DNA of 64,000 nt from positions 32,001-96,000 of the forward strand of contig JBNGBT010000002.1 in assembly GCA_049903315.1 (NCBI GenBank), in the 5' to 3' direction. Of this stretch, positions 11,322 to 36,950 are shown piece by piece; positions within the stretch are counted from its first letter, which is position 1, and each line of letters begins with the position of its first letter. The position numbers were made by a program, and so were the translations under genes. Under the pieces are notes generated by a model, which had not been told where the DNA came from, ran no database searches, and was given only the letters and a program-made list of their open reading frames with translations. This DNA comes from Candidatus Cloacimonadota bacterium. Its GTDB lineage: Bacteria > Cloacimonadota > Cloacimonadia > JGIOTU-2.

Positions 11322-13499
11322 ATGAAAAAATTACTTATACTAATCGCGGCTTTAATTATGCTTCCCGCAATTCTTTCTGCAACACAAATGAACGTGGTCG
11401 GGGAAGTATTTACATCCACGTCTTGAGGATACTGTCCTTCAGCCCGGGCCGGGTTGAGAGATCTTCAAGCTAATTTTGATAACTTTATACCGCTTTTCTG
11501 GCAAAGCACCAGCGGCTACGTGGGGATGCCAAGTCCCAATTACAGCACCCGTGGGGGTATGTACGGTGTCAGCGGTATTCCACATGCTCGATTTGGAGGA
11601 TACATCTCTGAAGTTGGTGGAATTGCTGGCGGTAATATGTACAATTATTATCTTCCTCATTACAATACACTTAATGCCCTGGATAGTCCATGTGCTATTG
11701 ACATTACGATGGATGTTACCTCTAAATCTACCATTGATGTTCAAGCTGATGTTGAATTGACTGGAAATATTACTACTACTAACAACAAGATCATTCTTCT
11801 GCTTACATACAAATACACTGATGATTATACTTGTGCGGTCGTTGCATATCATGATGAGAACTTTAATCTTACCACAGTAGGTCAGACCGGAAGCTTTTCC
11901 TATTCATTCGCGTATGACCCAGACTGGGTATTACCCGATTTGAAGGCAGTTGCTATTGTTCAGCCCTTTTCAAGCAATTACAAAATACATCAGGCAGCCA
12001 CTTGTGGTGTGAGCGGCATTTTCTCAATCTTCAGCAGCAATATTCAATCCGGACCACCGCAATTGGGTGTACAATTCTATAATGAATCATATCCTGATAC
12101 AGGCATTGTATCATATGAATGGGACTTTGACGGAGATGGAACATGGGACAGTACAGAAGAAAATCCATATCATCTTTATGACACGATTGGTAGTTATAAT
12201 GTATCACTCCGCATCTCTGATGGAGTCGAAACAGCAACTACAACAGCAGATGATTATATCACTGTAACGAACAGCTCAGATATTTCCGGAGAATTATCCG
12301 GTATATGGACAGAAACATATAGTCCATATATTATCACCGACGATGTGCATCTTGCGGATGAAAATCACCTGGAGATCGGACCGAATGTGGTAATCCATAC
12401 GAACAACGGAAGCAAAATCACGATTGAAGGATACTTCCGCGCAGTAGGTGATGAACGAGGTAACATCATTTTTATGACTGATGATACCTGGAGCGGTTTA
12501 TACTTCTTCAATTCACCTTATGAAAATGCACTGAGTCACGCAAATATAACCGGTTCTAATAACTGCGCAATCGATATTTATAACTCCCGAGTAGTAATAG
12601 GTTATAATACTATTTTTGGAAACTCCACAAGCTCTCAGAAAGGACCTGCGATCAATGCAACGAATGCTGACGAAGTGCTTATTGAATGGAATCTGATATC
12701 CAATAATACAAGCTCGAGTTTGTGTGGTGCGATAAGTTTGGATAATTCCTCTCCGCTTATTGTTCGTAACATCATTGTGAATAATGAAGCGGTCTATTCC
12801 GGTGCATTTAGCATGAAGAATGCATCATGTCCGGAACTTCTCAATAATACTATAGCGAACAACCTTGCGAGTTATGTATTTTATTTGTTTTCAAGCTCTA
12901 ATCCTATAATCGAGAATTCTATTATCAGGAACACGAGTAATGTGTTCATTAACTTCTCCAGCACACCTTTAGTCACATATTCTGATGTTTCAGGTGGATT
13001 CACAGGGACAGGCAATATCGATGAAAATCCCCTGTTTGTTAATCCAACTGCCGGTGACGGACCTACTTATGACGGGCTTGCAGCTGATTGGGGCTTACAG
13101 CAATCCTCCCCATGTATCGATGCAGGAAATCCTACTTCACCACCCGATCCTGACGGCACTCGTGCTGATATGGGTGCTCTGTATTACCATCAATATGTGT
13201 CTGTAGATGACCCGGAGGTAATACCGGTTTCCGTACACAACTTCCCTAATCCTTTTGCCAATAAAACGACTATTTCTTTTAATTCAACTGCGAATCTACA
13301 GGGCTTGGATCATATTACCATCTACAATATAAAAGGTGAGATGGTTACAACCTTAGCTTTAGAAGCATCTGATTCAGGATTCAGCACTGTATGGGATGGT
13401 AGAGATGATGCAGGAAAGAGTGTTTCAAACGGAATATATTTCTACAAATTCAAAGCAGAAGATATTGAAAGAACACAGAAATTGATCTTAATGAGATAG
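11322..13499 (+). CDS. Predicted exported selenoprotein (Sec at codon 35, UGYC): Omp28-like thioredoxin domain, PKD, beta-helix and sorting tail, 725 aa
   Basis: AAGGA RBS then ATG at 11322; MKKLLILIAALIMLPAILSA signal peptide; GEVFTSTS-TGA(11424-11426)-GYCPSAR; in frame with the 11454 ORF; hairpin at 11439-11457. Confidence 0.88.
11439..11457 (+). promoter_or_regulatory. Candidate bacterial SECIS hairpin
   Basis: TCAGCCCG-GGC-CGGGTTGA: 8-bp stem (one G-U) starting 12 nt after the UGA, G-first loop. Confidence 0.8.
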
Positions 13500-16071: not shown

Positions 16072-17994
16072 ATGAAAAAATTAGCTGTTCTCATATTTCT
16101 TATGATCCTCTCATCAACAGTTTTTGCAGCGTATCAGGTCGGCGATGTAGTTTCAAATTTCAGCTGGACTGATAACACAAGCACAACGCATAATATTTAT
16201 GACCTCATCGACGCGGAAAAAGCGATCGTATTTTTCTGGGGAGGTACTGGTTGAGGTGGCTGTGTTTCGGCGGCGCCGCAATTAGAAACTATCTGGCAAA
16301 ATTACCAAGGAACCGGTCATTGTTACATTCTTTCCGAAACCGACTGGACTTCTTATGGAGCAACATATTTTAATTCTTATGATATCGATCCTTATTACTC
16401 TCAATATGGAAACGGGTTTATTCCATTTTTTGCTGTCATTGGTGGTGAATACAAATTGTATTACGGAGACAATAGTGTGGGTAGTGTACCAGCTGCGCTG
16501 GATGCTGCCATTGCATCCTTGGGTTTATATGCAAATTTTGATGCAAATATAACTCAGGGACCTCCAGAACTCACTGTGCAGTTTACCAGCACATCGTCAG
16601 GTGCTCCGGATGCATGGGACTGGGATTTCAACAATGACGGTACCATTGATAGTCACGAAGAAAATCCTGTGTGGACCTACACCGGAGTTGGTTCTTATGA
16701 TGTTTCTCTTACAGTTTATGAAGGAGCTGATAGCGATGAACTCATTCAAGAGGACTTTATTACTGTTCTCGATCCATCGAATGTATCCGGTGAATGTGCT
16801 GGAAATTGGTCACCCACTTATGGAACGTACACGATTACTGGGAATGTTACCGTTCCTGTCGGTACGGTTCTGTCGATCGAGCCAAGCACGAATATCGTTG
16901 TAAATAATGGCAGCAAGATTGAAGTGAAAGGCAGAATTGAAGCACAGGGTTCAGAACGTGGATTGATACACTTCTCAACCGGCACTACATGGAAAGGTGT
17001 AAAGATAATCGATAGTCAAGAAGACAATGTGATCGATTTATGCTATTTCACAGGTTGTACAGAAAGTGCAGTTGATATTGATAATTCTACAGTAGATGTT
17101 CTCAACAGCACGTTTTATGAAAATACCAATACGAATCAAAAAGGTCCTGCTATAAATGTATTAGATGCCAGTGATGTCCTTATAATGGGTAATTCAATTG
17201 CAAATAACTATAGTTCTGTCCTTTCAGGTGGTATTGTGCTCGATAATGCCTCGGTTGAGATTTCCCATAATATCATTGTGAATAACGAAGCTACTTTTGC
17301 CGGTGCAATTGGAATGAAAAATGGATCTGATGCATCACTTATCAATAATACGATTGCAAACAATGTCGGGAGCTATGCCTGTATTTATCTTATATCCTCT
17401 TATCCGAATGTACTCAATACGATCATCATTCATGATGGTTTGATATTCACGACATTCAGCAGTAATCCAATAGTAAACTATTCCTGTATCTCAGGCGGAT
17501 ATTCCGGAACAGGAAATATCAGCGATGATCCGGAATTTGTGACTCCCTCTGCAGGGGACGGCATTGCCTATGATGGTTTAGCTGCAAACTGGAATCTGCA
17601 AGAAACTTCTCCGTGTATTGATGCGGGAGATCCTTCCTCACCTCCTGACCCTGACGGCACGATTGCAGATATGGGTGCTTTGTACTATCATCAGGTAGTC
17701 TCGGTTGACGATCCACACAGCAACATGATCTATGTCAGACAGAATGCACCGAATCCTTTCAAAGGTTCTACTTCAATATCCTATTCATTGCCAAAGAATT
17801 CCGAAAATGCTGTCATCACGATCTATAATGTCAAAGGTGATGTTGTGAAGGAATTTACTCTTGAAAACACAGAAGGTGATATCATATGGAATGGTATGGA
17901 TCAGAATAATAATGCTGTTGCAAGCGGAGTTTATTTTTATAAACTGCAAGGAGATTCCATTTCTCAGACCAGGTCAATGGTCTTCATGAAGTAG
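16072..17994 (+). CDS. Predicted exported selenoprotein (Sec at codon 61, UGGC): AhpC/TSA-redoxin-like domain, PKD, beta-helix and sorting tail, 640 aa
   Basis: AGGAG RBS; signal peptide; VGDVVSNFSWTD...KAIVFFWGGTG-TGA(16252-16254)-GGCVSAAPQLETIWQ; no other stop before it joins the 16456 ORF in frame. Confidence 0.9.
16264..16289 (+). promoter_or_regulatory. Candidate bacterial SECIS hairpin
   Basis: Core CGGC-GGC-GCCG (16268-16278), extendable by GTTT/AAAC; loop starts 17 nt after the UGA. Confidence 0.65.
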
Positions 17995-18022: not shown

Positions 18023-18117
18023 TGAGAGGAAGGAACTGGTGTTCCAGCTGGTCTTCAAAATCAGTAGTGAGCGGATAACACCGTTTATGGCAGGTTCGAT
18101 TCCTGCCCTCTCGGCCA
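18023..18117 (+). tRNA. selC: tRNA-Sec (anticodon UCA)
   Basis: D arm GGAAC-TGGT-GTTCC; 6-bp anticodon stem with CTTCAAA loop (TCA at 18055-18057); long variable arm; GCAGG-TTCGATT-CCTGC; G-CCA end; directly upstream of selA. Confidence 0.96.
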
Positions 18118-18145: not shown

Positions 18146-19525
18146 ATGGATAAAAACGAACTCAGAAAAATTCCCGGAGTGGATACCTTGAAAAAGACCT
18201 CAAAGATTAAAGAACTCATTTCTGAATTTGGAGAAGAACTCACAGTTTTCTCAATCCGCCAGGTATTGGATAAGGTAAGAGAATCTGTTCTACAAGGGAA
18301 GAGAATTCCATCCGAAGATAAGATGCTTGCTATGATCGGGCAGAGAATAAATAATATTGGTTCCCAATCATTAAAACCAATGATCAATGCGACGGGTATC
18401 GTGCTGCATACAAATCTTGGGCGAGCCCCACTGGGTGAAGTACTCACAGAGGAAGTATCCAGAGTAATTCACGGATACTCCAATCTTGAGTTCGATTGTG
18501 AAAAAGGAAAGCGGGGTCACAGGGGAAACCATATCACTGATCTTATTACTTTTATTACAGGCGCAGAAGATGCAGTTGTCGTAAATAATAATGCAGCAGG
18601 TGTGTACCTGTCTCTCAGAACATTTTCAAAAGGTAAAGAAGCAATCATATCTCGCGGTGAACTGATAGAGATAGGTGGCTCATTCCGCATACCTGATATC
18701 ATGAAACAAAGCGGTGCGAAAATGATCGAAGTGGGTACAACAAATCGTACACGCCTATCAGATTATGAAGCAGCAATTACTGACAAAACTGCGGTACTGT
18801 TCAAGGCACACAAATCAAATTATTATATAGAAGGATTTTCCGAGGAAGTAGAGATAGAAGCTCTTGCGCAGCTCGCGCATGATAAGGAACTCATGTGTGT
18901 TTTTGATTTGGGATCGGGATTACTGAGAAAACCAACGGGGCTCTTATTAGAAACTGAACCGGATGTTCATAGTGCAATTGCGTCCGGTGCCGATCTCGTG
19001 ATGTTCAGTGGTGATAAACTTCTGGGTGGTCCTCAAGCAGGCATTATTGTCGGCAAAAAGAAGTATATTCAGAAATTGAAGAAATCACCACTTATGCGTG
19101 TACTTCGGGTAGGAAAAATGACGCTTGCAGCACTCTCTGCAGTGATCCGATGCTATCTCAAAGATGAAACACTCCTTGAAAATGTGCCAGTTTTCCACTT
19201 GCTGGATCAGAAAAAAGACGAACTGCAAGAGAAAGCACTACAGTTTTCAAAACTCCTTTTAAAAGAAAAAATTCCTAATATAATTATTGAAAATACGGCT
19301 CATTGCGGCGGAGGGACTCTTCCACAAGTTGAAATTCCCAGTTTTGCAGTGCGGCTTGATCTCTTAAAAACAAGGATTACTCCAGAACAGCTTTACCATC
19401 AATTGCTTCAATTAGAGAAACCTATTCTCGGTATTCTTCGCGAGGGTACGATACTCTTTGATGTGTTCACTTTAACTGAAGACCAGTTTGAATACATAGC
19501 AAAGCAAATAGTTGCTTTTAATTGA
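18146..19525 (+). CDS. selA: L-seryl-tRNA(Sec) selenium transferase
   Basis: INATGIVLHTNLGRA, VVNNNAA, SRGELIEIGGSFRIPD, EVGTTNRT, FSGDKLLGGPQAG. Confidence 0.98.
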   Translation: MDKNELRKIPGVDTLKKTSKIKELISEFGEELTVFSIRQVLDKVRESVLQGKRIPSEDKMLAMIGQRINNIGSQSLKPMINATGIVLHTNLGRAPLGEVLTEEVSRVIHGYSNLEFDCEKGKRGHRGNHITDLITFITGAEDAVVVNNNAAGVYLSLRTFSKGKEAIISRGELIEIGGSFRIPDIMKQSGAKMIEVGTTNRTRLSDYEAAITDKTAVLFKAHKSNYYIEGFSEEVEIEALAQLAHDKELMCVFDLGSGLLRKPTGLLLETEPDVHSAIASGADLVMFSGDKLLGGPQAGIIVGKKKYIQKLKKSPLMRVLRVGKMTLAALSAVIRCYLKDETLLENVPVFHLLDQKKDELQEKALQFSKLLLKEKIPNIIIENTAHCGGGTLPQVEIPSFAVRLDLLKTRITPEQLYHQLLQLEKPILGILREGTILFDVFTLTEDQFEYIAKQIVAFN

Positions 19526-19788: not shown

Positions 19789-21723
19789 ATGAAGCATTTG
19801 ATAATGGGTACAGCAGGTCATGTTGACCACGGCAAAACTGCGCTCATCAAGGCACTGACAAATTTTGATTGCGACACGCACAAGGATGAGAAAAAACGAG
19901 GGATCACTATTCATCTTGGTTTCACACATCTCGATCTACCGAATGGGAACAGCATCGGTATAATTGATGTGCCCGGGCATAAAGATTTCATCAACACGAT
20001 GATATCTGGAGCCAGCACAATTGATTTTGTGCTTTTTACTGTCGCTGCAGACAGCAGTATCATGCCGCAAACGAGCGAGCATCTGCATATTATGGAGCTT
20101 CTGGGTATCAAAAACGGCATTATTGCACTAACAAAATGCGATACAGTTGATGAAGAAATATTGGAACTCGTTGAGCTTGAAATTGACGAGTTCGTTGCAG
20201 GTACATTTCTTGAGCACGCTCCGATCATTAGAACATCTACAAAAGATAATATGGGAATGAGTGAATTAATGAGTGAGATCAGTAAAATCACAGAGAAAAT
20301 TGAGCAGCGATCATCCGGATTATTTTTCAGAATGTACATCGACAGGATTTTCAGCGTTCAAGGTTTTGGTACGGTTATAAACGGGTCGGTTTTGCAAGGA
20401 AGCGCAACAAAGAATACAGTTTTGTATTTACTCCCCGGGAGTAAAGAATTGAGGATTCGCAAGATGGAACATCACGGGAAAGAGGTGAATGAAGTGGTAT
20501 CCGGTCAGCGAGCTTCTTTGAATGTGGTGGGACTGGATATACAGAATTTCCAGCGTGGAATGATGGTATCAGAAAGAATCATAAAACCTACAAAAATGAT
20601 CGATGCGGAACTCACTTTATTTGATCATGACAGAACTTTCGGAATATGGAATCATGCCCTTTTTCTCATGGGTACTTTTGAAGATCAAGTAAGGATACAT
20701 TTACTCGATAAAGATACTTTACAAGGTGGTGAAAAAGGATTGGTGCAGATACATCTTGAAAAAGAATGCTTTCCAATTTTTGGAGATTCATTCATTATCA
20801 GGAGCACGTCCGGAGATATTACACTTGGGGGAGGTAAGGTGCTGGATGCATATCCCCTTCATCATAAAAAGCGAACTCCGCAAATCATGGAACATATACA
20901 GACAATTGCGGATGGGGGTTTGCCGGCATTCATCGCAGCTGAGGTGAGAAAGCGACCTCATGCAGTTCCTCTACCATTTCTTGCAGAAATTTCTAACATT
21001 CCTGAACAAGAATTGAAAGAAATAGTATTAGCTTCCATTCCCGATGATATCGAGATAAGAGAAGTCAATCAAAAAATATTATTAGTAGCTCTCTCAAGAA
21101 TTGGACTGATTAAAGGAAAAATTACCAAAATACTCACGAAGCATCACACGGAGAATCCGCTTATACAAAGGGGAAAAACCTTCGAAGAATTATCCAGTCT
21201 ACTGAATCTGGGCACAGAATATGACGTTTCATTCTTGAGTATGCTGTTGGAAGAAATGAGTAATAATAAAGTTCTGCGTAAGATTGAAGGAACGTATGCT
21301 CTTAAAGAAAAGGATAATTCGCCTTCCGATCAAGAAATAAAAAAGATAAAGAAAATCGGACAATTCATATTGAGTTTTGGTATGAAAGTTCCTTTAATGA
21401 ACGAGATAAAGGAATTTGGCCAGACACAGGGAATGTCTCAGAAAGAACTGCATGATATTATCAATTTTCTTATTGAAAATAAAGAAATCGTTACGATCGA
21501 AGGTTCGTTTATTCACGCAGCGATCATTGAAAAAGCGAAGAATGTGTTAATCGCACATTTCGAAAAGAATGAGACGCTCATGCTTGCTGATTTTCGTGAT
21601 AACTTGCAGGCAAATAGGAAGATATGCCTGTTGTTACTCTCTTATTTCGATGATAAGGGATGGACTGTTCGCAAAGGTGATTATCGGATATTGTCCGAAA
21701 AAGGTAAGGAGTTATTACACTGA
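19789..21723 (+). CDS. selB: Selenocysteine-specific elongation factor
   Basis: [43 protein letters not shown]-terminal winged helix FRD...RK...L.YFD..G...R.GD.R. Confidence 0.98.
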   Translation: MKHLIMGTAGHVDHGKTALIKALTNFDCDTHKDEKKRGITIHLGFTHLDLPNGNSIGIIDVPGHKDFINTMISGASTIDFVLFTVAADSSIMPQTSEHLHIMELLGIKNGIIALTKCDTVDEEILELVELEIDEFVAGTFLEHAPIIRTSTKDNMGMSELMSEISKITEKIEQRSSGLFFRMYIDRIFSVQGFGTVINGSVLQGSATKNTVLYLLPGSKELRIRKMEHHGKEVNEVVSGQRASLNVVGLDIQNFQRGMMVSERIIKPTKMIDAELTLFDHDRTFGIWNHALFLMGTFEDQVRIHLLDKDTLQGGEKGLVQIHLEKECFPIFGDSFIIRSTSGDITLGGGKVLDAYPLHHKKRTPQIMEHIQTIADGGLPAFIAAEVRKRPHAVPLPFLAEISNIPEQELKEIVLASIPDDIEIREVNQKILLVALSRIGLIKGKITKILTKHHTENPLIQRGKTFEELSSLLNLGTEYDVSFLSMLLEEMSNNKVLRKIEGTYALKEKDNSPSDQEIKKIKKIGQFILSFGMKVPLMNEIKEFGQTQGMSQKELHDIINFLIENKEIVTIEGSFIHAAIIEKAKNVLIAHFEKNETLMLADFRDNLQANRKICLLLLSYFDDKGWTVRKGDYRILSEKGKELLH

Positions 21724-33067: not shown

Positions 33068-33260
33068 TTATTTGCTCAATCCTCTTCGCATGCATTAAAA
33101 AATTAAAATTTTATACAATATGAAGTTAAGATGTTTTTCTACATTTCTCATAGTATTATCCAGTAAAGTATCCTTTGGATAACATTATTATTCTTTAAAA
33201 TTCTCACTGTAAAATTTGCATTTATTGACACAATTTTCAAGAATCTTTTTGTCAAATATT

Positions 33261-35456
33261 ATGAAACCCATATATCTCGACTATAATGCAACTACGCCAC
33301 TTGCACCTGAGGTGGCGGAAGCAATGAATCCCTTTTTGGAGGAGTATTTCGGCAATCCGTCAAGCTCGCACTGGTATGGTGTGCAGACGCGTAAAGCAGT
33401 GGAAAAAGCACGCGCACAGGTTGCAGCACTCATTCATGCCAATTCGGATGAGATCATCTTTACAAGTGGTGGTTCGGAGTCAAATAACTTTGCGATCAAG
33501 GGTATCGCATATGCAAAGAAGTCTGTTGGCAATCATATTATTACTTCATCGATAGAGCATCCGGCAGTTGTTGAAGTGTGTGAGTATCTCAAATCACAGG
33601 GCTTTGAAATAACTTATATTCCTGTTGATGAGTACGGCGTGGTGAATCCCGATGATGTGGAAAGAGCAATAACTCCGCAGACAATTCTTATTTCCATCAT
33701 GCACGCCAACAACGAAGTAGGTACGATCCAACCGATACAAGAAATTGCTGAGATCGCGCATAAACATGAGATTATTATGCACACGGATGCAGCGCAGTCA
33801 ACTGGGAAAATTCCGGTTGATATGGATGAACTTGGCATAGATCTGCTTTCCATTGCAGGGCATAAACTTTACGGACCAAAAGGAATTGGAGCACTGTACA
33901 TACGGCGTGGTGTTAAACTCGAAAAGATCATCCACGGCGCAGATCATGAGCAGAATCTACGAGCTGGTACGGAGAATATTCTTTGCGATGTCGGACTGGG
34001 AAAAGCGTGCGAAATAGCTGGTCAAAACTTGCAGAAAAATATGCAACATATGAAAGAGATGAGGGACTTACTACATCAGAAAATAGAGGACTCCGGACTT
34101 GATTTTATTTTGAACGGACATCCAGAAAAACGGTTGCCGAATACACTCAGTCTCTCCTTCCGAAATGTTGAAGCAAATACGGTCCTTTCAGAACTTACAA
34201 ACGTTGCAGCTTCTGCAGGTGCAGCGTGCCATTCCGACCAGATCGATGTATCTGCGGTGCTGGAAGCAATGGATATACCGCTCGAATATGCAATGGGAAC
34301 AATACGCTTTTCAACCGGAAGGTTCACCACCAAGGATGATATCGAGAAGGCAGCGGAAGAAGTCATAAAAGTGATAATGAATTTCCAGGGAAAAGGTGAA
34401 GAAACAGTCTCCAAAGCAGGAGCTGAAATCAAACTTACTCACTACACACATGGCATGGGATGTGCCTGTAAGATCGAGCCGGCTTTGCTGGAAGATATAT
34501 TGAAGAACCTGCCGATTCCTGACGATCCAAAAATTTTAGTAGGCACACAAACTGCAGATGATGCTGCGGTGTATAAAATAAATGAGGAAACCGCACTTGT
34601 AGTCACACTCGATTTCTTCACACCCATTGCAGACGATCCATATGATTTCGGCGCAATCGCCGCATCTAATGCGTTGAGTGACATTTATGCGATGGGAGCA
34701 ACTCCTTTGTTTGGCTTGAATATCGTTGGATTTCCCTCGAACAGACTGCCGATGTCAGTGCTGGAAAAAATTCTACAGGGAGCGCAGAGTAAAGCACAGG
34801 AAGCAGGTATTTTTGTGATAGGCGGTCACACGATAGAGGATACTGAACCGAAATACGGCATGGTCGTCATCGGTAGTGTGCATCCCGAAAAAATATGGAA
34901 AAATATCGGTATGCAAAAGGATGATGTACTGATCTTTACTAAACCAATCGGCACGGGCATTCTTTCGACTGCATTAAAAAGAGGTTTGCTCGATGATGCA
35001 CAGAAGGATATGCTGATCTCGACAATGGCTGAGTTGAATAAAAAAGCTGCGGAGATTCTCCACAATTATGCTGTTCATGCCTGTACAGATGTAACTGGTT
35101 TCGGTCTACTCGGGCATCTCATGGAAATGGTACAGGGGAGCAATGTGGCAGTTGAGCTTAATGCAGAGAATGTGCCGGTTCTTGATGGCGTATTCGAACT
35201 GACAGCAGGAAATGTCATACCGGGTGGGACGCTCTCGAATATGAAGTATGTCGAACCAAGTGTTGAGTGGAGCTCGAAATTATCAAAGGTACAGAAAATT
35301 GTTCTTTGTGATGCGCAGACTTCTGGCGGATTACTCGCAGCAGTGGGGGAAAAAGTTGCACATGAAATTGTGCGAGAACTGCATGATGCAGGCATCACCC
35401 ATGCGCAGATTATAGGAAAGGTAATTGAGGGAAAGCCGATTATTAAAGTGGTGTAA
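33261..35456 (+). CDS. selD: Cysteine desulfurase/selenocysteine lyase (NifS-like) fused to selenophosphate synthetase
   Basis: N part IYLDYNATTP, FTSGGSES, HTDAAQ, AGHKLYGPKG, SAGAACHS; C part LTHYTHGMGCACK, DDAAVY, DFFTP, GGHT, TDVTGFGLLGH, DAQTSGGLL; one continuous frame. Confidence 0.95.
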   Translation: MKPIYLDYNATTPLAPEVAEAMNPFLEEYFGNPSSSHWYGVQTRKAVEKARAQVAALIHANSDEIIFTSGGSESNNFAIKGIAYAKKSVGNHIITSSIEHPAVVEVCEYLKSQGFEITYIPVDEYGVVNPDDVERAITPQTILISIMHANNEVGTIQPIQEIAEIAHKHEIIMHTDAAQSTGKIPVDMDELGIDLLSIAGHKLYGPKGIGALYIRRGVKLEKIIHGADHEQNLRAGTENILCDVGLGKACEIAGQNLQKNMQHMKEMRDLLHQKIEDSGLDFILNGHPEKRLPNTLSLSFRNVEANTVLSELTNVAASAGAACHSDQIDVSAVLEAMDIPLEYAMGTIRFSTGRFTTKDDIEKAAEEVIKVIMNFQGKGEETVSKAGAEIKLTHYTHGMGCACKIEPALLEDILKNLPIPDDPKILVGTQTADDAAVYKINEETALVVTLDFFTPIADDPYDFGAIAASNALSDIYAMGATPLFGLNIVGFPSNRLPMSVLEKILQGAQSKAQEAGIFVIGGHTIEDTEPKYGMVVIGSVHPEKIWKNIGMQKDDVLIFTKPIGTGILSTALKRGLLDDAQKDMLISTMAELNKKAAEILHNYAVHACTDVTGFGLLGHLMEMVQGSNVAVELNAENVPVLDGVFELTAGNVIPGGTLSNMKYVEPSVEWSSKLSKVQKIVLCDAQTSGGLLAAVGEKVAHEIVRELHDAGITHAQIIGKVIEGKPIIKVV

Positions 35457-35755
35457 TTTAACCACTGATTAACACGAATTGAAATCAATAAAGGAAATTC
35501 CCAAATGTATGATGAATCTCGCGATCGATTTCAAAATATTCAAGGATTCTGCCATGTAGCGCAAGATTCCGATTTATCAAGGCGTATTCCGGTTTACAGG
35601 AAGGAGACATATCTTGCGTATTCGACATCCATTTTCATTTCATTACACCGAGACAGGTCGGAATGTTAAGTTACTTCCCGCTGTAACGAGAAAACTAAGT
35701 GATTGCTTGACAACCTCACCTAAAAACCTAATCTATTTTCATATTCGGAGGTACA

Positions 35756-36793
35756 ATGAATAGTAAAAAATATATAAAGAGAGTTGTTGCATTGGCAGCA
35801 ACGCTAATCGCAGTATCTGCTGTATCACTTTCTGCGGATATTTTACTCTGGGATAATGATAACTACTCCACAATTGAAGATCCGGAAGGTGCTGGATATG
35901 TCGGATGTGAATATGCACTTGAAAAAGCATTCAATAACATGACTTTATCCTACACGACCTTAAGTTATCTGCCCACAAATCTGAGTGATTATGACATGTT
36001 GTTCATTACACTCGGTCACTGGTGCTTTGGTTGAGGAAGCACTCCTCCGGGCCAGGTTGGCTCAATCGAACAGCAGATGATCATCGATTTTATTGAATCC
36101 GGTAAATCGGTATATATAGAAGGCACAGATGTTGCTTCGGGTTTGCAGGGAACGTCACTTTTTGACTACTTTGGAAACTCATTTGACGGAGAGGGTGGCA
36201 ATATGAATGTGCAAGATCTTGCGGGTGTTCCGGGCTCGTTTGCTGATCCTATTATGGTTGATTATCAGTACTTTTCAGAATCAGATTATGGTGTGGATGA
36301 GCTTGGCGCAGCATCTGCAGGAATATGTGTCCAATCCCAGGATATGATTGGCAGAGTTACTTATTGGGACGGTCCTGATGGCACTTATAGAGCAATGATG
36401 AGCTCGATCCTGTTCGGTTCAATAATCGATGGAACAGGTAACAACAATAAAGCTGCACTCCTGAGCCGTTATTATTCCTTCATGAAAATTCCCCCTGTAA
36501 GTGTCGATCCGCCAAATTCACCATCAAATGACATTATTCTGCAAAATTATCCCAATCCATTCTCAGCTTCTACCTTGATTTCTTACTCAATCCCTCCCCA
36601 TCAAAATAATATTTCTCTCGAAATATTTGATATCAAAGGGAGAAAAATTAAAGAATTTTCTTCATTGCAACAGGACGGCACTATTGTCTGGGATGGTTCA
36701 GATCATTTCGGAAATAAAGTGTCTAATGGTATATATTTGTACAAATTCCGGGGAGTGGATAGTGACGTGCATAAAATGATGTATATAAAGTAA
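35756..36793 (+). CDS. Predicted exported selenoprotein (Sec at codon 93, CFGU) with sorting tail, 345 aa
   Basis: GGAGG RBS, signal peptide, ITLGHWCFG-TGA(36032-36034)-GSTPPGQ in frame with the 36077 ORF; NYPNPF...WDG...VSNGIYLYK tail; follows selD. Confidence 0.82.
36038..36062 (+). promoter_or_regulatory. Candidate SECIS hairpin (weak)
   Basis: AGC...CCT-CCGGGCC-AGG...GCT; shares CCGGGCC with the 11439 hairpin. Confidence 0.5.
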
Positions 36794-36815: not shown

Positions 36816-36847
36816 GCCCTCAAATTATTATTTTTGAGGGCTTTTTT
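36816..36847 (+). terminator. Intrinsic terminator
   Basis: GCCCTCAAA-N8-TTTGAGGGC followed by TTTTTT. Confidence 0.85.
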
Positions 36848-36950
36848 ATTCTTATTAATTATAATAACTTATTTATATTATGTAATTTGTATAATATTTG
36901 ACAAGAAAACACGGTACTACGACTTTTTAACAAATTTCATGCAGTTCTTC

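Follow-up and report, generated by a model that had tools for sequence, protein, structure and literature searches.

A probable Cys-x-x-selenocysteine protein with a glutamine amidotransferase-like fold and a predicted type IX sorting domain in Candidatus Cloacimonadota

The DNA analysed here is a stretch of 64,000 nucleotides from a Candidatus Cloacimonadota bacterium (assembly GCA_049903315.1, contig JBNGBT010000002.1, positions 32,001 to 96,000), called the window below, and its subject is a gene at positions 35756-36793 of the window, which very probably encodes a selenocysteine (Sec)-containing protein. The parts of this locus and the Sec machinery genes described below are all on the forward (+) strand. 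The open reading frame (ORF) listing of the window has two ORFs at this place, 35756-36034 (92 aa) and 36077-36793 (238 aa), which share a common frame. With TGA read as Sec (U), 35756-36793 becomes a single frame of 345 residues, closed by a TAA, with codon 93 (36032-36034) as its sole TGA, in the context H-W-C-F-G-U-G-S-T-P-P-G; full-length matches with a single TGA were found in relatives. From its 5' end, the locus comprises a ribosome-binding site, GGAGG, 4 nt 5' of the ATG (35747-35751); a predicted signal peptide (residues 1-27, 35756-35836) ending in S-L-S-A, homologues having equivalent hydrophobic N-termini; a domain of about 215 residues (residues 28-243, 35837-36484), matched by no Pfam or NCBIfam model and, from its structure model, resembling class I glutamine amidotransferases (GATase1-like); within it, the C-F-G-U codons (36023-36034), with Cys90 at 36023-36025 and Sec93 at the TGA; a predicted C-terminal sorting domain of type A of the type IX secretion system (T9SS; residues 265-339, 36548-36772); and, behind the gene, a GC hairpin with a T run after it, which resembles a terminator (36817-36848).

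The two adjacent ORFs are taken as one gene because the UGA aligns with the Cys of relatives. A homologue scan over one genome per GTDB species gave 52 loci, 50 of which span the motif (51 domain copies) and two of which stop short of the column. The Sec column holds TGA in 43 of the 51 copies and TGC (Cys) in the other 8, and the first Cys of C-x-x-[U/C] is kept in all 51. In a six-frame search of 61 related genomes, 19 matches to the N-domain had exactly one in-frame TGA and three had no stop, and tblastn alignments of relatives placed a stop at query column 93 in 16 of 18 loci and a Cys in two. As the genome sets of these searches overlap, their counts are not independent. The reading frame is conserved on both sides of the TGA in every homologue examined. 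The His before the motif is variable, its place being taken by H, I, V or L. The initial annotation had read the locus as a Cys-x-x-Sec (CxxU) selenoprotein and had proposed a tabulation of CxxC versus CxxU among homologues; that reading is borne out by the 8 vs. 43 copies and their conserved downstream frame, and likewise by the covarying hairpin and the full Sec machinery described below.

Public proteins mostly hold only the part behind the UGA. Of the 24 matches, the best 17 are 193-249 aa long and extend over no more than 56-69% of the query, its downstream part; two of them are titled 'T9SS type A sorting domain-containing protein [Candidatus Cloacimonetes bacterium]'. In the HMMER results, 69 of the 150 listed 50%-identity representatives begin (with their own residue 1-4) at query positions 96-137, by hand count, and seven of the nine fragment proteins that were fetched start at a PPG/PAG motif, two to four residues past the Sec column. 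Conversely, a 92-residue representative (P0143) ends directly before that column.

Were the TGA a true stop, the locus would contain two genes or a broken gene, with the 92-residue peptide as the sole product of the first frame. The public annotation, which has the downstream 238-residue frame only, would fit this, as would the unremarkable energy of the downstream hairpin when folded as a single sequence. This explanation is nevertheless very improbable: 43 copies, drawn from three or more named phyla, keep the frame through the TGA, and eight more have Cys at the column; the downstream start is not conserved, the called fragments beginning at varying codons; no ribosome-binding site comparable to GGAGG precedes the internal ATG at 36077; and a single modelled fold extends over the TGA, which falls between strand 3 and helix 2.

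Concerning the history of the site, a tree built from 49 domain sequences implies three or more Sec/Cys changes, with the Cys forms nested within a mostly-Sec clade. Sec is spread over all main branches of this tree, whose basal support is weak, and may be ancestral.

The machinery for Sec insertion is encoded in the same window. It includes a tRNA-Sec with anticodon TCA (18023-18117; ARAGORN, and Rfam RF01852 with 57 bits), selA (18146-19525; TIGR00474, 550.5 bits), selB (19789-21723; TIGR00475, 319 bits) and, directly upstream of the selenoprotein gene, a nifS-selD fusion (33216-35456; TIGR03402 and TIGR00476). The SelD part of the fusion scores 396.8 bits (residues 406-713), and the NifS part 484.5 bits (residues 19-389), which is below the 530.75-bit cut-off of TIGR03402, so that it is called NifS-like only. 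The sequence reads as a NifS-like cysteine desulfurase and SelD in one 746-residue frame, the N-terminal loop of SelD bearing Cys and not Sec.

A reading of the UGA as Trp, Gly or Cys, through a changed code or near-cognate decoding, was also considered. A full-length database homologue (P0029, 344 aa) does carry Trp at the Sec column (C-S-G-W-G), either from a real TGG or from its source's translation of TGA as Trp. However, TGA is the ordinary stop of 15 of the 48 long ORFs of the window, and a reassigned TGA is excluded on this ground; moreover, tRNA-Sec, selA, selB and selD are all present, Cys stands opposite the TGA in 8 of 51 copies, and a covarying hairpin lies at SECIS (selenocysteine insertion sequence) distance. 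Decoding as another amino acid is thus extremely improbable.

Behind the UGA, the minimum free energy fold gives two small hairpins. The first (36033-36047, 5 bp) takes in the GA of the UGA itself; the second, the candidate SECIS element (36049-36063), starts 14 nt after the UGA and has a 6-bp stem with the loop GGU (36055-36057), that is, a hairpin shortly after the UGA with a G in its apical loop, as expected of a SECIS. For both, pairing was followed in 44 distinct sequences with TGA, aligned without gaps. The first is paired in 80.9% of cells, with little covariation; the second, which runs over the codons of G-x-V-G-x, is 81.4% paired, with both-sided changes in four of its six pairs. When both helices are counted together, covariation amounts to 0.305 vs. 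0.119 in shuffled alignments, none of 500 shuffles reaching as high, and to 0.06-0.115 with slid partners. At the first Gly, the synonymous wobble position is base-paired to position 1 of the codon two further on (AU 17, UA 15, CG 6, GU 2, unpaired 4), a pattern which, as read from these sequences, selection at the protein level cannot explain. Two lineages have altered amino acids here, and the alterations preserve the stem (G-E-V-L-S in L054, G-V-V-Y-S in L060). The G-x-V-G-x hairpin is therefore a clean example of an RNA structure that constrains a protein sequence. Its position varies slightly: in the window gene and its closest relatives, it lies one column (1 nt) 5' of the majority position, and in a few clades 9 nt further on.

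Several points tell against taking this hairpin simply as a SECIS element. The 1-nt offset of the window hairpin adds unpaired cells to the covariation alignment, and relatedness among the aligned sequences inflates the shuffle statistics. Folding of the single sequence is unexceptional, with z -0.26 over 81 nt and z -1.12 over 60 nt. Furthermore, six distinct TGC sequences keep the second helix equally well (83.3% paired), and the hairpin may consequently not be solely a SECIS. We read the hairpins of the Cys forms as probable fossil SECIS elements because these forms nest in a mostly-Sec clade, with at least three Sec/Cys changes; a further role is possible. A search of Rfam at E≤1 found no family in 35400-36200, and only the tRNA-Sec in the window as a whole.

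The TGC forms with a kept hairpin are L036, L038, L039, L043, L063 and L071 (columns 22-36 of the alignment). In one TGC clade, the outer G-C pair became A-U through a Gly-to-Ser change combined with a synonymous change.

As for the protein, the initial annotation had proposed a non-thioredoxin, flavodoxin or class I GATase-like fold from the strings ILLWDND, DYDMLFITLG and IDFIESGKSVYIEG.D, all of which are found in frame, and had placed the CxxU on the loop after the third strand. The structure prediction and Foldseek search that it called for agree on both counts. A first AlphaFold model, built from 14 sequences, had a predicted local distance difference test score (pLDDT) of 63.6 and no Foldseek match at E≤0.001, and was replaced by a model from 49 sequences with a pLDDT of 95.8 and a predicted template modelling score (pTM) of 0.93. 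With the latter, Foldseek gave 199 PDB matches at E≤0.001, those listed being without exception class I GATase-like domains. The best VIA-align hit is STM3548 (2gk3_A; Z 17.1, root-mean-square deviation 2.8, 183 residues aligned), followed by a GATase1-like protein of Planctomyces (3rht_A, 16.6), middle domains of the GH42 type (about 16), ThuA-like proteins (14.7 for 4jqs, and 13.6), the N-terminal domain of IFT52 (5fms_A, 14.4), OST48 (12.3) and the C-terminal domain of S1P (8uw8_A, 12.1).

In domain numbering, DSSP assigns strand 3 to residues 54-58, after which come C63 and U66 and then the next helix (76-87). These are the only conserved Cys/Sec of the domain; strand 4 (91-95) ends in Y-I-E-G and has no Cys there. 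With its Cys-His-Glu triad absent, the protein is, according to the model, one with a GATase fold but no glutamine amidotransferase. At the sequence level, no link to GATases emerged: a profile search of PDB sequences returned only 6xl7_A (E 0.035), and the 49 family members, scanned singly, matched no Pfam family except for one weak match to DUF4159 (E 0.037). The natural Cys homologue P0026 (residues 24-243), used as a query of the ESM Atlas, proved uninformative, its matches being unnamed Bacteroidota clusters, a 'xanthan lyase fragment' cluster and DUF4960.

The C-terminal part (residues 265-339) matches TIGR04183 with 29.6 bits (cut-off 23). Components of the T9SS are also encoded in the genome, PorU scoring 534.6 bits against a cut-off of 420 and SprA a summed 559.6 bits against one of 200. 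The protein is probably a type A cargo of the T9SS, as predicted from its sequence; a weakness of this assignment is that PF18962, with 27.1 bits, is barely at its cut-off of 27.

By record titles, the CxxU/CxxC family is found mostly in Cloacimonadota, and also in Zixibacteria, in one Ignavibacteria metagenome-assembled genome (MAG) and in two MAGs labelled Armatimonadota. On the tree, the subfamily clusters together (SH-aLRT 92, two long-branch exceptions), and it also shares a W-D-N-D-N-x-S loop after strand 1. More distant relatives are without the Cys pair, and their loop is shorter. Some are accessory domains of secreted Peptidase_S8 (two copies), Peptidase_C25, M6, M4 or PAD_porph proteins, most of which have a T9SS or FlgD-Ig tail; others are short stand-alone proteins. 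The acidic residues that hardly vary across the wider family are the D-x-D behind strand 1, D154 and the E that follows strand 4. In the longer CxxU members, the domain is joined only with beta-sandwich modules (CARDB, CarboxypepD_reg, HYDIN-like Ig/DUF1573, MAM, NIDO) and the T9SS tail, which leaves it as the sole candidate for the functional head.

Copies of the CxxU domain can occur together: tandem or neighbouring ones, all with TGA, are present at L070:1501-2142 and L070:2773-3429, and at L050 and L056 on one Zixibacteria contig. The genome studied here has a second, longer TGA-containing paralogue outside the window (G000:C22:308227-308847). Among the short Cys-free members, P0058, P0062, P0117, P0125, P0130 and P0138 have a common tail, G-x-[IV]-[KR]-x-[LA]-[FM]-x(0,1)-[RKE], in place of the T9SS domain, which may be a different sorting signal.

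Taken together, the UGA is likely read as Sec, yielding a 345-residue protein predicted to be displayed through the T9SS, whose Cys-x-x-Sec loop is predicted to be a redox-active selenenylsulfide centre. The hairpin would recruit SelB with its tRNA-Sec, and Sec would be inserted at codon 93; export over the inner membrane would depend on the signal peptide, and onward passage through the T9SS to the cell surface on the C-terminal domain. There, Cys90 and Sec93 are predicted to sit where the parallel sheet has its C-terminal edge, on the loop that follows strand 3, beside the W-D-N-D-N-x-S loop and the Glu after strand 4. In flavodoxin-like and GATase1 folds, this edge of the sheet is the ligand side. 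The pair may cycle between selenol/thiol and selenenylsulfide to reduce, or exchange with, a substrate outside the cell, for instance disulfides, peroxide, or species of sulfur or selenium.

Such a redox role, considered for itself, is plausible but tentative. It is consistent with the retention of Sec in 43 of the 51 copies, and CxxU and UxxC motifs are given as a mark of redox selenoproteins in a review of 2026 (PMC13188914). Two points count against it. Nine residues separate U66 from the helix at 76-87, so that the motif lacks the place at the start of a helix that it has in thioredoxin-fold enzymes. The main difficulty lies in the supply of electrons, as we know of no donor that could serve a site beyond the outer membrane.

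The same gene and the same Sec could also form a putative site for soft metals or metalloids (e.g. Hg, Cu, Zn, Ni, As or Se species), acting in capture or detoxification at the surface and not in catalysis. Conserved acidic residues do flank the Cys-x-x-Sec, and the catalogued families with paired Cys/Sec include metal binders and transporters (mercuric transport protein, CopZ-like, MbdU; listed in Table 1 of PMC13188914). Short-form orthologues, furthermore, adjoin nifS-selD in five genomes (L001-L003, L005 and L006); this adjacency is, however, confined to one bacterial family, may be plain synteny, and was rejected as a functional clue. In addition, the genes seen next to the selenoprotein gene include none for metal transport or resistance, and Sec in place of Cys is mostly tied to catalysis and less to binding. 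We regard a metal site as possible, but rather unlikely.

A third proposal is that the protein is an adhesin-like surface module in which the selenenylsulfide does no more than staple the ligand-binding loop into shape, the hairpin being kept for another reason, e.g. translational pausing. The closest structural relatives are indeed non-catalytic GATase1-like modules (of glycosidases, IFT52, OST48 and S1P), Cys-free members serve as accessory domains in secreted peptidases, and the hairpin persists in the Cys forms. Yet costly Sec is used in 43 of 51 copies where Cys would do, the CxxC/CxxU spacing is typical of redox-active and not of structural pairs, and recent Sec-to-Cys changes (at least three on the tree) explain the hairpin of the Cys forms equally well. 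A staple is accordingly improbable.

The window has two other in-frame TGAs. At 11424, in a gene at about 11322-13499, the TGA has 46 residues before it and 690 after it, in the context S-U-G-Y-C, and the strongest downstream hairpin of the three (z -2.18). At 16252, just upstream of the tRNA-Sec, it has 60 residues before it and 579 after it, in the context G-T-G-U-G-G-C, the frame running into the ORF 16456-17994; the 60 nt downstream fold no better than shuffles (z +0.74), and this is a candidate for the third selenoprotein gene of the window. The initial annotation had called the SECIS of the 35756-36793 gene the weakest of the three, which does not hold: its z of -1.12 falls between the two others, and its comparative support is strong.

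Between nifS-selD and the selenoprotein gene, at 35600-35675, lies a dispersed repeat of about 65-75 nt with three further copies in the genome (83-91% identity). It was seen in contigs from the RNA libraries X18 and X20 and is without a match in Rfam. One contig of the X20 library (260 nt, 13 differences) bridges the TGA over 35846-36105, but comes from a relative and may be DNA, and was not used as evidence. RNA evidence is generally weak, the three metatranscriptome runs holding only small shares.

How far the family is already catalogued was assessed against several sources. The review mentioned above lists 119 prokaryotic selenoprotein families in its Table 1 (PMC13188914), and no family of that table shares the domain or the motif context, or is described as secreted or as linked to the T9SS. 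In NCBIfam release 20.0, only T9SS-tail models match the protein at E≤1. The suggestion of the initial annotation that the family was an unrecognised one thus agrees with both the domain models and Table 1. The texts of PMC13188914, PMC12013277 (deep-Sep) and PMC13326102 (BSepDB) contain no mention of T9SS, sorting domains, Cloacimonadota or secretion, though the deep-Sep supplements or BSepDB entries could list the family under a generic name. In the literature records available, selenoprotein combined with Cloacimonetes leads to one tRNA-Sec survey and combined with Cloacimonas to none, and selenocysteine combined with T9SS gives unrelated papers only. Secreted candidates are described in the GOS study of 2008 (PMC2398784), where the 'MucD-like' (C-E-P-U) and GOS_A proteins are unrelated to the CxxU family, and the WDND motif does not occur in its supplementary sequence files.

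By structure, the nearest relatives are the GATase1-like modules (STM3548 2gk3, 3rht, the ThuA-like 4jqs and 1t0b, the GH42 middle domain, IFT52/GIFT and S1P), which have the same fold across the whole domain and are likewise without the Cys-His-Glu triad. In S1P, the GATase1-like domain follows a subtilisin domain, as Cys-free relatives of the CxxU domain also do (P0086). These modules have no link to the CxxU domain at the sequence level, however, and the CxxU protein differs in its predicted secretion with a T9SS tail. Among those compared, we know of no GATase1-like module with a CxxC or CxxU loop after strand 3.

By motif, the nearest are the CxxU redox selenoproteins (SelW-like PF10262, AhpD-like TIGR01926, GrdA PF04723, Prx-SUH and others, as listed in Table 1 of PMC13188914), which have the same Cys-x-x-Sec with Sec second, Cys homologues and a bacterial-type hairpin directly after the UGA. 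They are thioredoxin-like or AhpD-like and cytoplasmic, in contrast to the GATase1-like predicted T9SS cargo described here, and none of their models matched at E≤1. Among the catalogued selenoprotein families, the sole one with a GATase-type domain, and the nearest by fold, is the CTP-synthase-related GATase selenoprotein (NF004836). It has a GxUxG motif and is cytoplasmic, whereas the present protein has CxxU and is predicted to be secreted, and NF004836 gave no match at E≤1. Its Sec presumably replaces the nucleophile after strand 4, whereas here Sec stands after strand 3.

A parallel in setting is the GOS_C / Omp28-related selenoprotein (NF045500), a secreted surface protein which, like the CxxU protein, occurs in Cloacimonadota and is cut at the TGA by annotation; it has a thioredoxin fold and a UxxC motif and is catalogued, whereas the CxxU protein has another fold and motif and is uncatalogued. 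We take the window gene around 11424 to be a member of this secreted thioredoxin-like family. It is conceivable, though speculative and unlikely, that Cloacimonadota and neighbouring uncultured phyla possess an extracellular selenium redox system, in which an inert GATase-like scaffold, made a catalyst by its Cys-x-x-Sec loop and delivered by the T9SS, would be partnered with the secreted thioredoxin-like selenoproteins of the same sel neighbourhood; if so, bacterial selenoproteins would offer no earlier example of such a redox relay at the cell surface.

The CxxU family is genuine, widespread, absent from the catalogued selenoprotein lists compared and systematically mis-annotated. As databases keep only the post-UGA fragment, the selenoproteome sizes of Cloacimonadota, Zixibacteria and Ignavibacteria are underestimated. 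To our knowledge, the bacterial selenoproteins described so far are, with few exceptions, redox enzymes of the cytoplasm or periplasm, mostly thioredoxin-like. The CxxU family differs from them in carrying Sec on a GATase-like scaffold, in its predicted T9SS route to the surface and in being common in uncultured anaerobes, and it provides a concrete case for selenium chemistry outside the cell.

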